From assembly GCA_965217775.1 (NCBI GenBank), contig CBDCJH010000002.1, positions 3,776,001 through 3,840,000 of the forward strand: 64,000 bases of DNA. Direction: 5' to 3'. The position numbers and the translations under genes were made by a program. Shown here piece after piece: positions 21,824-24,714 of this stretch. This stretch comes from Acidobacteriota bacterium (GTDB taxonomy: Bacteria > Acidobacteriota > UBA6911 > RPQK01 > JAJDTT01). A model generated the notes under the pieces. The model saw only the letters and a program-made list of their open reading frames with translations, searched no databases and had not been told where the DNA came from. Positions within the stretch are counted from its first letter, which is position 1, and every line of letters starts with the position of its first letter.

Positions 21824-23505
21824 CGGGAACAGTCCCCACTCTGCCATGCCGAGCCGTCCGCCGGAGCCCCCCGATAACTCTCGTTCCAGCAATCCTGCAC
21901 CCACTCCCACACGTTCCCATGCATGTCGTAAAGTCCAAACCCGTTCGCTTGGTACCTCCCAACCATTGCCGTCTGGTTACCTACTCCATCCGAACAGCTC
22001 TGGTTCCGCCAACTCCAATCCGTGCTCGTGTCGGCATGGTTCCCATATTGGCAAAGTTGCGATTCGTCGTTCCCAAAATGGTACGCCGTCACCGATCCCG
22101 CCCGCGCCGCGTATTCCCACTCCGCCTCGCTCGGCAACCGGTACCGCTCCCCCGTCTGACCCGACAACCACCTCACATACGCCACCGCGTCCTCCCACGA
22201 TACGTTCATCACCGGACGACACCCACGGCCCCAGCCTTCGTCGTCCGCCAGCTTCCGGTCCGTCGCCGCCGTGAACCGATCGTACTGCTCGAACGTCACC
22301 TCGTATTTGGACAGCTCGAACCTTCCGACCCGAACCGTATGCACCGGGTGCTCGTCGTCATCGCAGTTCTGACCCGAGACGCACCCCATCCGGAAGCTCC
22401 CCCCGGGGATCTCCACCATCTCCGGTTCGAACGGGAGCCTCTCCCGGGCCTGGGGTTGGACTCGCTGCCTGCCCGCAGCGTCCGCTCCCGGCGCCACTGC
22501 GGCCGACCCCGCGCCGGTCACGGCCGGCTCCCGCAGCCCGCGCCTCGATTTCACCCGTAGCGCCAGCGCCTCCCGATAGTGCTTGCCTCCCCTCCCGGCC
22601 TTCGTCACGTACTGCGTCGCGGCATCGATGGCCGCCTGGTACGACCCGGCGCCCAGTGCCGATTGCGCATACAGGAACGGAAATTCCTCCGGCAAATCGA
22701 GACCGTGCTCCTTTCGCAGAGCCAAGATCCGGTCCATCGCCCGGAGAGCGCCCTGATGGTCCTCTTCGCCGACCAGCATCTCCACTTCCAGCAGATACTC
22801 GTCCAGCATCATCTCCGGGGGAAGTTGGCCGGAAGCGGAAGGGCCCGGACCCCCGGATGGAGGCGCCGGCTCCCGGGCGGCCCCGGCGGTCTCGGATGGG
22901 GCTCCCGGGTTTCGCGAGGGGGCCGCCTTGTCCGGCTGACCGAAGGTGAAGTCAGTCGACCAACGCTCGAACGAGGACCGGTCCGTGTGAAACACGGCCA
23001 AGTACAAGACCCCCTGCAGCGTCTCCCTCGGATACATTCCGGAGGGCGCCGACAGGGTCTTGGTGTGGCCACCCCAAAACACGAGGTCCGAGTACGGCCC
23101 CCCCGCCACGCCTCCGCCCGGTCCCTCCCCGGTCCAGTTCGTGCAGGGCGGATGCTCCGATTCGATCTCGAAGTCCGCCCGCAGGTACGACAGCGCCTTC
23201 CCGGTCCCGTTGTGGGCAGAATAGTCCAACTGCCAGACATGCAGCGGCTGGCCGTCGTTGCCTTTTATAGCTTCGTATTCGGCTTCCGTGTGGTTCTCCT
23301 CCCGGACTCGGCACACGGCCGCGTTGTAGGTGATGATCCGCGCCGTCCCCCGAAGCTGGACGCCGTCCTTTTCATAGAGGATTTCCGCTCGAGCCAAGGG
23401 ACCCGCGAAGGCCCACGACGCCATCAGGAGCCCCGTGGACAAGAGGACACGTTCTCTCTTCCGGGCTGTTCCTTTCGTTCCGTTGCTGCAAATTCCTGTA
23501 GCCAT
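21694..23505 (-). CDS. DGR target: exported protein with unknown N-domain, helical QLPPE domain and C-terminal FGE-sulfatase/CLec domain
   Basis: MVEIPGGSFRMG, YEVTFEQY, RLPSEAEWEYAARAG, GLYDMHGNVWEW, RVLRGGSW...GFRVAR. Adjacent to avd and RT. Confidence 0.9.
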   Translation of the reverse strand: MATGICSNGTKGTARKRERVLLSTGLLMASWAFAGPLARAEILYEKDGVQLRGTARIITYNAAVCRVREENHTEAEYEAIKGNDGQPLHVWQLDYSAHNGTGKALSYLRADFEIESEHPPCTNWTGEGPGGGVAGGPYSDLVFWGGHTKTLSAPSGMYPRETLQGVLYLAVFHTDRSSFERWSTDFTFGQPDKAAPSRNPGAPSETAGAAREPAPPSGGPGPSASGQLPPEMMLDEYLLEVEMLVGEEDHQGALRAMDRILALRKEHGLDLPEEFPFLYAQSALGAGSYQAAIDAATQYVTKAGRGGKHYREALALRVKSRRGLREPAVTGAGSAAVAPGADAAGRQRVQPQARERLPFEPEMVEIPGGSFRMGCVSGQNCDDDEHPVHTVRVGRFELSKYEVTFEQYDRFTAATDRKLADDEGWGRGCRPVMNVSWEDAVAYVRWLSGQTGERYRLPSEAEWEYAARAGSVTAYHFGNDESQLCQYGNHADTSTDWSWRNQSCSDGVGNQTAMVGRYQANGFGLYDMHGNVWEWVQDCWNESYRGAPADGSAWQSGDCSRRVLRGGSWSDNPRDLRSASRGRFTASGRVRYSGFRVARTITP

Positions 23506-23700
23506 GGGGCTCTCTCCATTGGGTCGTTGGTGCGGGCCAAGTGCGGTTGCCGCCGATCATAGCGGAACCCCGCTGCGGGAGGAACCCGTCCGGCGCCCTC
23601 CGAATCCACGGCCGGATCTCCCGCCGAAACCGAACGTTTACGGTACGATGACCGTCAATAGAAGGTCACCCGCACGAGTTCGACCGCAGGAGAGACCGCC

Positions 23701-24714
23701 ATGCCCGGAACGATCCTAAATCTCGTCGTTTACGTCGGGTTCGGCGCCACAGCGGCGTTGGCCCAGCTTCCACCCGAGGTGATGGTGGACCGCCATTTGT
23801 TGCACGCGGAACGGTTGATGGCTCAAGGCGACCCGGTGCGAGCCCTCGAAGCGATGCAGAAGGCCCTTGATCTGAAGATGGATCGCGATCTCGAGTTGCC
23901 GGAGGATTTCGACTTCAAGTATGCGGAGGTGGCCTTCTCGGCCGGGTCGCTGCAGGCCGCCATGGACTCGGTGAACCGGTATTTGAGGATGGCCGCGAGG
24001 GATGACGCGTTCTACCGGGAGGCACTGGTGTTGTCGCTCGATATCGAGGCCAGTCTGCCGGCACAGAACTCGTGCCCGGACCGGCCCAAGGGCGCCGAGT
24101 GCTGGAAGGAGTTGGCCAAACAGCCGGGATGCTTCGTGTGGATTTCCGACCTGCAGCCGGACGAGACCGTCACCTGGTCGTCCATTTGTGCCGGGACCAC
24201 GGTCCAGGGGACGGGGACCATCAAACGGGTCTGGAACGACGGCAAATCAACGGTTGAAGGGACCGGACGCCTCCAACACGGCAAGCGGCAGGGCGAATGG
24301 TTGGTGCGGGACGCGAATGGGGACGTCTCGGAAGGACCCTACGTCGCCGGCCTGAGACACGGCCTCTGGGTCGAGCGCAAGGCCGACGGCGCCGTCTGGA
24401 AAGGCTCCTATGTGGCCGGCGTGAGGCAAGGGCGATGGGTCGTCCGCGACGCCTATCGCAGCGTCTGGGAAGGACCCTACGTGGACGGCATGAGGAACGG
24501 CGACTGGATCGTCCGCCATGCCGACGGCGGAGTCTGGGAAGGACCCTACTTCGACGACAAGATGCACGGCGATTGGGTCTGGCGCCTTGCGGACGGCGGT
24601 GTCTGGAAGGGGCAATATATGTACGGCGAGATGGACGGTGACTGGCTCATTCGAAACAAGGACGGAAGCACAAGCAACGTCTATTACCGGAACGGTGTGG
24701 CGTACTACGAATAG
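23701..24714 (+). CDS. Exported protein with QLPPE helical domain and about six 23-aa MORN-like repeats
   Basis: Signal peptide ending ALA-Q; repeats of the form EGPYVxGxRxGxWvxRxADGxVW with 69-bp periodicity (about 24256-24670). Confidence 0.82.
   Translation: MPGTILNLVVYVGFGATAALAQLPPEVMVDRHLLHAERLMAQGDPVRALEAMQKALDLKMDRDLELPEDFDFKYAEVAFSAGSLQAAMDSVNRYLRMAARDDAFYREALVLSLDIEASLPAQNSCPDRPKGAECWKELAKQPGCFVWISDLQPDETVTWSSICAGTTVQGTGTIKRVWNDGKSTVEGTGRLQHGKRQGEWLVRDANGDVSEGPYVAGLRHGLWVERKADGAVWKGSYVAGVRQGRWVVRDAYRSVWEGPYVDGMRNGDWIVRHADGGVWEGPYFDDKMHGDWVWRLADGGVWKGQYMYGEMDGDWLIRNKDGSTSNVYYRNGVAYYE

Follow-up and report, generated by a model that had tools for sequence, protein, structure and literature searches.

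A stretch of 64,000 nucleotides from the genome of an Acidobacteriota bacterium (positions 3,776,001 to 3,840,000 of contig CBDCJH010000002.1; hereafter the window) carries two divergent genes, separated by a 195-nucleotide spacer (23506-23700), whose products both start with signal-peptide-like N-termini, as read off the sequence. One product is a protein of the type diversified by diversity-generating retroelements (DGRs), here called the variable protein, and the other is a protein with MORN-type repeats. The two have a domain in common that begins with the motif QLPPE. The locus raises the question of what this domain is, why it is found on such different binding scaffolds, and whether the two genes belong together. 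In a BLASTP comparison of the two open reading frames (ORFs), a single significant segment was found, in which 44 of 96 residues were identical (46%) without gaps (E 4e-23). A domain of ~95 residues common to the two proteins had been proposed in an earlier reading of the DNA (the original prediction); the positions of our two copies (Table 1) fit its range of 22555-24060, and the peptides it quoted are present in the translations of both ORFs. In the MORN-type protein, the domain comes directly after the signal-peptide-like N-terminus (..AALA followed by QLPPE). In the variable protein it is internal, preceded by an N-terminal domain (up to ~residue 190) and a Pro/Gly-rich linker. We also found a third copy that had not been noticed previously. 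It lies in an ORF of 131 residues (26174..26569, plus strand). This ORF is a truncated 5' piece left of a duplicate of the MORN gene, and its DNA is 81% identical to the 5' end of the MORN gene.

The fold of the domain was modelled with AlphaFold2 from an alignment of 48 rows. The model displayed five helices (8-24, 28-45, 53-63, 67-80 and 88-101), with a mean predicted local distance difference test score (pLDDT) of 94.4 and a predicted template modelling score (pTM) of 0.86, in agreement with the helical character that had been proposed. When the model was compared with the PDB using Foldseek, the rows shown were almost all natural or designed tetratricopeptide repeat (TPR) or TPR-like repeat proteins (best E 0.01). 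The antiparallel helix pairs and right-handed superhelix that define the TPR fold were found in the AlphaFold2 model and in its structural matches, with statistics that are weak to middling. Many of these matches are peptide binders, including NprR, PlcR, Hop TPR1, kinesin light chain and the 94-residue peptide-binding domain of collagen prolyl 4-hydroxylase. Concerning family libraries, the Pfam model TPR_16 (PF13432) matched the copy of the MORN-type protein with 24.1 bits and that of the variable protein with 16.9-17.6 bits, not reaching the gathering cut-off of 32.7; only a paralog elsewhere in the genome (L007) reached it, with 33.0 bits. In NCBIfam, the domain gave only chance-level TPR-type rows (E 0.009-0.02), and a search of the sequences of solved structures with the family profile described below gave a single chance-level row (Mcl-1, E 0.76). 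The clusters found in an ESM Atlas feature search were unnamed or TPR-labelled (0.92-0.94); these are leads only and indicate nothing specific. As the TPR matches of the window domain in Pfam and NCBIfam are all below threshold, the domain represents an unnamed TPR subfamily. Its fold, according to the model, is a short TPR with two repeats and a capping helix, and tells nothing further.

A profile of 98 positions was built from the three window copies and searched against 1.84 billion cluster representatives. It matched 1003 representatives at E ≤ 1e-3, 662 at E ≤ 1e-10 and 60 at E ≤ 1e-30; all counts of architectures and partners given below refer to the best 150 of the 1003. The first copy of the domain begins within the first 45 residues in 132 of these 150, and the stretches before it resemble signal peptides ending in A-x-A. 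As this ending directly precedes QLPPE, the motif would form the mature N-terminus. By a crude rule, the motif was found directly after a hydrophobic N-terminus in 112 of 136 motif-bearing proteins, and several of the other 24 missed only on details of the rule. One copy was present in 118 proteins, two in 30 and three in 2, and second copies in such tandem proteins often retain a QLPPE-like start, which indicates that the motif belongs to the domain and not to the cleavage context alone. Among 143 copies, the start was a near-invariant Q-L-P-P-E/D (Q in 128, L in 140, P in 130 and P in 142), and the residues conserved in at least 80% were Q5, L6, P7, P8, D13, L16, A31, L41, Q42, H45, F53, F55, Y57, A58, Y77, L78, G82, R83, G85, Y88, A91 and L92. 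The polar positions among these that lie beyond the TPR core (such as Q5, D13, Q42, H45, Y57, Y77, R83 and Y88) suggest a common ligand.

The partners of the domain were then identified with Pfam on all 150 representatives at E ≤ 1e-5, and MORN-like arrays were counted by phmmer with the C-terminal part of the window protein. A MORN-like array was the commonest partner (60 of 150, including the window's own clusters P0006, P0014 and P0015), while the Pfam models MORN or MORN_2 were matched in 2 proteins. FGE-sulfatase was found in 24, ankyrin repeats in 16, and PG_binding_1 in 4, where it is always N-terminal of the module. Three proteins harbour a MORN-like part and FGE-sulfatase together. 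The proposal that one TPR-like module is fused to different binding scaffolds was thereby supported, and the domain is not a generic TPR lacking enrichment but is strongly tied to exported repeat and FGE-sulfatase proteins. On an 87-row tree of the domain, the partner label requires at least 18 changes, against a mean of 32.8 for shuffled labels. Well-supported branches alone require at least five changes for FGE-sulfatase, four for MORN and two for ankyrin. The finding of at least 18 partner switches supports the view, also put forward in the original prediction, that the binding heads are interchangeable.

The results show homology, the fold, the place behind signal peptides, the diversity of partners and their repeated exchange; a docking or display role of the module is plausible. 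In the mechanism that we propose, the ~95-residue domain, with its Q-L-P-P-E/D start, two TPR hairpins and capping helix, would in most members be the first part of the mature protein, following a Sec-type signal peptide that ends in A-x-A. Linkers join it to ligand-binding heads, most commonly MORN-type arrays, and also ankyrin repeats and FGE-sulfatase/C-type-lectin-fold domains, DGR variable proteins included. The module would bind a protein or peptide and so link the exported proteins to a single shared partner in the cell envelope; the C-terminal head would provide the variable specificity, and the module would set where the heads act. We give about even weight for and against the domain being such an autonomous exported TPR-subfamily domain, a handle that attaches alternative binding heads to a common envelope partner. 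A more specific version is possible but doubtful. In it, the so far unrecognized handle would mark a whole class of proteins, among them eukaryote-like MORN and ankyrin repeat proteins and lectin-fold proteins diversified by DGRs, for one envelope receptor or display/export machinery that they share, and would have spread between phyla with the cargo genes.

Several points weigh against a handle of this kind. The docking role is drawn from the analogy with other TPRs and from the architecture, and the signal peptides were identified by visual inspection and with the crude rule. The fold is a generic TPR, and Foldseek gave no match of the domain in the PDB at E ≤ 0.001. In VIA-align against 48,161 chains, the rows shown were almost all of TPR type, with Z from 13.2 down to ~10, a range in which helical repeats (Z below ~13) may share a common arrangement only. 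None of the four partner types was detected in 50 of the 150 representatives. In 33 of these 50, fewer than 110 residues follow the domain, and many of the 33 may be fragments. In the four proteins with a peptidoglycan-binding domain ahead of the module, the module is accordingly not the sole anchor. Tandem copies (two or three) occur in 32 of the 150 and some copies are internal, including that of the window variable protein, so that a strict N-terminal role does not fit every member. Finally, in the domain tree, calculated from 98 columns, 46 of the 82 inner branches are unresolved.

Part of the same evidence could also be explained by an export or sorting tag, with an outer-membrane export or surface-display machinery recognizing the mature N-terminal module and the heads representing its cargo. 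Precedents for such tags are the N-terminal TPS domain of two-partner secretion and the C-terminal domain used in type IX secretion. As expected of a tag, the mature protein starts with five residues that hardly vary, the domain follows the signal peptide directly in most members, the cargo is very diverse, and the domain occurs patchily across phyla (in 9 of 301 sampled genomes within the window's phylum). The motif, however, is retained in tandem and internal copies, as exemplified by QLPPE at residue 227 of the window variable protein; no recurrent transporter gene was found next to the loci annotated, and the TPR fold is typical of a binder and not of a known secretion signal. The TPS domain is beta-helical, comprises ~250 residues and comes with the gene of its partner transporter TpsB, whereas the module has 95 residues, is all-helical and has no transporter gene beside the annotated loci. 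We regard a tag as unlikely. We see a still smaller chance that the domain is a generic TPR spacer or folding cap without any partner, which would aid folding, solubility or protease resistance, for example through a cyclizing N-terminal Gln. The structural matches are indeed of TPR type only and statistically weak, TPR_16 stays sub-threshold on the two window proteins (24.1 and 16.9 bits against 32.7), and linkers separate the domain from the heads. A spacer would nevertheless not require conservation that far exceeds the needs of a TPR scaffold and includes many polar positions, nor a family recognizable across phyla at E ≤ 1e-30, nor a module re-used repeatedly with new heads.

Some TPR domains oligomerize, and the tandem copies in 32 of 150 proteins would be in keeping with a self-association module that forms dimers or mixed oligomers and thereby multivalent or mixed-head complexes. 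No finding speaks directly against self-association, and the architecture is explained equally well without it; we consider it improbable. A homodimer prediction with two domain copies, which gave a score of 0.00 in both runs and was performed without controls, weighs neither way. The original prediction had also raised a possible modular receptor system; in the stronger reading of this idea, the divergent C-type-lectin-fold and MORN genes constitute a two-gene system whose products dock via the shared module. The two genes are adjacent and divergent with a short spacer, and in four of four public runs (three studies, one run possibly being the source sample) both gene starts are spanned by short contigs, which indicates that the head-to-head arrangement is real in nature. 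On the other hand, no variable-protein gene is present at the syntenic place in any of six related loci, the cassette to which it belongs is a pseudogenized DGR remnant, the two domain copies, with 46% identity, are placed in separate clades, and elsewhere in the genome MORN and C-type-lectin-fold parts occur in one polypeptide and not as gene pairs. A two-gene system is, in our estimate, very improbable.

The six related loci (L010-L015) share the gene order permease, kinase-like gene, MORN gene. By tblastn, the MORN orthologs were 76-87% identical to the window protein in the N-terminal part and 82-92% in the remainder, and no match to a reverse transcriptase (RT), Avd or FGE-sulfatase was found in the six. 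In four of them (L010-L013) the MORN gene comes directly after the upstream gene. In blastn alignments, a gap of 37 nucleotides in L010 (3829 to 3866) corresponds to window positions 20399-23618, and a gap of ~45 nucleotides in L012 to 20399-23631; L011 and L013 displayed the same close spacing of the kinase-like and MORN genes in tblastn. L014 (2349-3690) and L015 (2310-3669) have ~1.3 kb of other DNA between these two genes, with no counterpart in the window and no match to DGR parts. The gap before the MORN gene seems to be a recurrent insertion site. Downstream of the MORN gene, a second block holds an RT scrap (24973-25040), a 5'-truncated FGE-sulfatase ORF (25090..25905, minus strand), the spacer and the MORN 5' remnant, and a contig of run X5 joins 24860 to 26698, that is, without this block. 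When the intact RT of the genome was compared with the other eight genomes of the genus, a 48-residue piece was found in one genome only; the RTs otherwise found in these eight genomes were ~30% identical and mostly in open frames of 440-620 residues. On the domain tree, the copy of the variable protein groups with P0030, P0026 and P0060 in a well-supported clade of four rows, itself nested in an ankyrin-rich clade of 16 rows, and the copy of the MORN protein lies among MORN-type rows; the two copies are of different subfamilies. Judged on these sequence comparisons, the results demonstrate that the two window genes did not co-evolve as a pair, and that a DGR cassette, since decayed, was inserted beside a conserved MORN gene in this genome only, the region having been duplicated in part later. 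The head-to-head "system" was consequently rejected as a by-product of insertion and duplication, the pair not being conserved in the six related loci.

We examined whether the variable protein is indeed a DGR target, as had been claimed. In DGR cassettes with an FGE-sulfatase target, the order is target, avd, RT and template repeat (TR). The window likewise contains an FGE-sulfatase protein (205.7 bits in Pfam) with an end of the variable region (VR) type, an adjoining Avd gene and an RT, in that order. When this VR-type end was aligned with the two TRs of the genome, 26 mismatches with 19 at a template A, and 25 mismatches with 17 at a template A, were counted, leaving 7-8 mismatches at other bases; the window VR also retains the downstream sequence conserved behind other VRs. 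The bias towards template A and the conserved downstream sequence suggest that the window VR was formerly diversified by a related template. In contrast to such cassettes, the RT gene is frameshifted, contains a stop codon and is cut at residue ~271 of 423, the last ~150 residues being absent. Residues 2-210 are 85% identical to the intact paralog, the remnant gave no match to Pfam RVT_1, and no TR or TR-like repeat is present within the window. The label of DGR target was confirmed in part, by the FGE-sulfatase family and the neighbouring Avd, and the cassette is, from its sequence, a decayed DGR remnant.

Some further observations on this cassette may be added. The ~70 nucleotides behind the VR (window 21637-21706, minus strand) are conserved in the window target, L006 and L004. 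In them, a stop codon and an AT-rich stretch precede an inverted repeat rich in G+C and a T run; we presume that this element is the hairpin/terminator known downstream of DGR VRs. At window position 20613, where the RT remnant changes frame, some contigs of public runs are one base shorter, with depths for the deletion in four runs of 21.8/68.8, 12.4/366.5, 47.3/126.3 and 96.5/163.9. These contigs may derive from the paralogous RTs that are intact, or from strains in which the frame is unbroken. In the same runs, the FGE-sulfatase/VR part of the window is covered by very many short, broken contigs of paralogs and other organisms. The N-terminal domain of the variable protein (~150 residues, within residues 1-222; window 22840-23505, minus strand) matched no Pfam family, and recurs only in P0026 and P0030 among the 150 family representatives.

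Table 1. Features of the window with their positions, and further loci of the same genome that carry the QLPPE domain
Feature	Position	Strand	Description
Variable-protein gene	21694..23505	-	603 residues: signal peptide, N-terminal domain (~residues 40-190), QLPPE domain, FGE-sulfatase/C-type-lectin-fold domain (residues 361-599)
MORN-type gene	23701..24714	+	337 residues: signal peptide, QLPPE domain, four-Cys beta module (~residues 121-165), MORN-type hairpin array (~residues 167-335)
QLPPE/TPR-like domain, copy 1	22552..22839	-	Residues 223-318 of the 603-residue protein; profile match E 3.3e-51
QLPPE/TPR-like domain, copy 2	23752..24039	+	Residues 18-113 of the 337-residue MORN-type protein; profile match E 4.6e-54
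QLPPE/TPR-like domain, copy 3	26174..26428	+	Profile positions 1-85, E 6.1e-45; cut after ~85
VR-type segment	21707..21827	-	3' end of the variable-protein gene; aligned to the two TRs of the genome
Avd gene	21223..21618	-	Pfam bAvd, 68.1 bits, E 1.1e-18
DGR RT pseudogene	20438..21239	-	Residues 2-210 in one frame, 199-271 in another; internal TGA
3.2-kb block	20399..23618		RT remnant, Avd and variable-protein gene; absent at the syntenic place in relatives
Second block	24720..26696		Absent from L010; decayed duplicate
L004/L020			885-residue protein: signal peptide, QLPPE domain, Cys modules, MORN-like part, FGE-sulfatase
L006/L022			624-residue protein; same module order as the 885-residue protein
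L005/L021			Broken copy on a small contig
L007			Diverged copy before ankyrin repeats: signal peptide, QLPPE domain, ankyrin

Concerning the MORN-type protein, no MORN family (PF02493 or PF07661) was matched by its 337 residues in Pfam, even at E ≤ 10, and its L004/L020 paralog scored 21-23.5 bits with MORN_2 against a cut-off of 29.6. The gene nevertheless contains four tandem units spaced by 69 nucleotides, corresponding to a period of 23 residues. The full-length AlphaFold2 model (pLDDT 88.2) displayed the helical module, then the four-Cys beta module, and then an array of beta hairpins to residue 335, the hairpins spanning 134-335 and the repeat array starting from ~167. In Foldseek, this model gave 89 matches at E ≤ 0.001, the best being MORN1 from Trypanosoma brucei (E 7.9e-14, template modelling (TM) score 0.73 on the target), and others MORN1 from Toxoplasma gondii and Plasmodium falciparum, junctophilins and radial-spoke MORN proteins. 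The MORN label was thus borne out by fold and period in spite of the missing family match, and holds on the predicted structure, not on a family model. As in MORN1 and the junctophilins, the C-terminal two thirds of the window protein would form an elongated array of beta hairpins with a 23-residue period; unlike them, the protein is bacterial and exported, and has the TPR-like and four-Cys modules ahead of the array.

The four-Cys module, with the pattern C..G.P.G.ECW.EL..QP.C.VW...ETVTW.G.C (window 24061-24195, plus strand, residues ~121-165), joins the TPR-like module to the MORN array. It is present twice in L004, and a loose form of the pattern matches 32 of the 150 representatives. Its cysteines and tryptophans do not vary across alignment A4, and the module probably forms disulfides, in keeping with an exported protein.

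The window's genome was searched with the profile, and seven copies of the domain were found at E ≤ 7.3e-15, three of them in the window, together with two chance-level rows. The gene of the 885-residue protein (L020) is followed by Avd, an RT of 423 residues and a TR, and 12 of the 13 mismatches between TR and VR are at a template A. This protein is a live-looking DGR target, as far as can be read from the cassette. In a second cassette, on a small contig, RT, Avd and TR are present and the target is broken. FGE-sulfatase was matched 11 times in the genome, comprising six VR-type loci, one TR itself and four other genes. In three VR-type loci, namely the window target, L004/L020 and L006/L022, the module lies in the same open frame; of the other three, one is broken with the module in a neighbouring frame (L005/L021) and two are 5'-truncated.

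The gene immediately upstream of that for the QLPPE-(MORN)-FGE-sulfatase protein encodes an exported VWA-domain protein in L020 (4546-6015; G000:C2:5228546-5230012) and in the Vicinamibacterales locus L019 (2495-3784). These VWA proteins share 64% identity over 272 residues, and the gene is present as a single copy in the window's genome. The protein could be an accessory or partner of this type of QLPPE-FGE-sulfatase cassette. Two scraps resembling the 3' end of the RT and the TR (G000:C2:5225095-5225262 and G000:C1:68185-68349), with 80% and 75% identity to RT residues ~341-397, respectively, were also noted, both 5-8 kb from the two fuller DGR cassettes.

The distribution of the domain was examined in 301 sampled genomes of the phylum. 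It was present in nine, namely the window's genome, five of the five others of its genus and three in two other genera, and in none of two genomes of the other genus of the same family. A pattern scan of species genomes additionally found the domain in Latescibacterota, Bryobacterales, Vicinamibacterales and Candidatus Zeuxoniibacter abyssi, a gammaproteobacterium of the Candidatus Tethybacterales; as the scan used narrow peptide patterns from a three-row alignment, which reach close relatives only, this list of taxa is a minimum. The Latescibacterota and Vicinamibacterales loci have the architecture signal peptide, QLPPE domain, FGE-sulfatase. As judged from these matches, the spread is patchy and extends across phyla. 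No neighbouring gene was common to all of four distant loci that were annotated. Among viral contigs, 84 pattern matches included no relative of the domain, with patterns too narrow to show its absence from phages.

Short peptide-binding TPRs such as CTPR2 (1na3) and the C-terminal domain of LpoP (6w5q) resemble the QLPPE domain in having two helix-turn-helix repeats and a cap within ~90-100 residues. Compared with these and with the collagen prolyl 4-hydroxylase domain (6evl/6evm/9htd), the TM scores were 0.65-0.74 and the Z scores 11.5-11.9, while identity was just 10-20%. Unlike these TPRs, the QLPPE family has a signature of its own, QLPPE..D..L...A...LQKEH.L.LP..F.FKYA....YL..AGR.G.FYREAL, and a fixed place after the signal peptide. 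Neither Pfam nor NCBIfam contains a model of the subfamily. The 98-position profile, with its 662 representatives at E ≤ 1e-10, can retrieve this class of proteins from metagenomes.

N-terminal regions that determine localization have reportedly been described for DGR variable proteins, namely the lipoprotein signals of TvpA from Treponema and LdtA from Legionella, and the N-terminal part of Mtd from a Bordetella phage. The QLPPE proteins would be similar to these in that a constant N-terminal part places a C-terminal, diversified head with a C-type-lectin fold. In contrast to TvpA and LdtA, they have no lipobox, the cleavage being of the type A-x-A before Q, and in contrast to all three, the module also serves heads unrelated to DGRs (MORN, ankyrin). 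A survey of DGRs reported that 16 of 71 FGE-sulfatase targets carry N-terminal extensions to which no function is assigned, and its main text uses none of the words TPR, MORN and ankyrin, although its supplementary tables may list such architectures (Wu et al. 2018, PMC5758913). Literature searches found no relevant paper on the motif QLPPE, and none of the papers retrieved for DGR with MORN or tetratricopeptide describes the module, as judged by titles and the starts of abstracts. The QLPPE domain thus has a known fold, of which it represents an undescribed subfamily and architecture. The module bears on the question of where chromosomal DGR variable proteins sit and what holds them. We find here one strongly conserved exported N-terminal module that is common to a live-looking DGR target (L020), to several that are decayed and to many MORN and ankyrin proteins that are not diversified. 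If the module is indeed a shared handle, its partner would reveal the place and manner in which the variable proteins of chromosomal DGRs are presented. The locus also calls for caution, as its suggestive head-to-head layout stems from the insertion and duplication of a cassette and not from a conserved two-gene system.

Further along the window, two tandem paralogous genes (26685-29612 and 29640-32417, both minus strand) encode exported proteins of ~950 residues, in which leucine-rich repeats are followed by a unit of ~230 residues present twice. An ortholog of these genes is present in related genomes.

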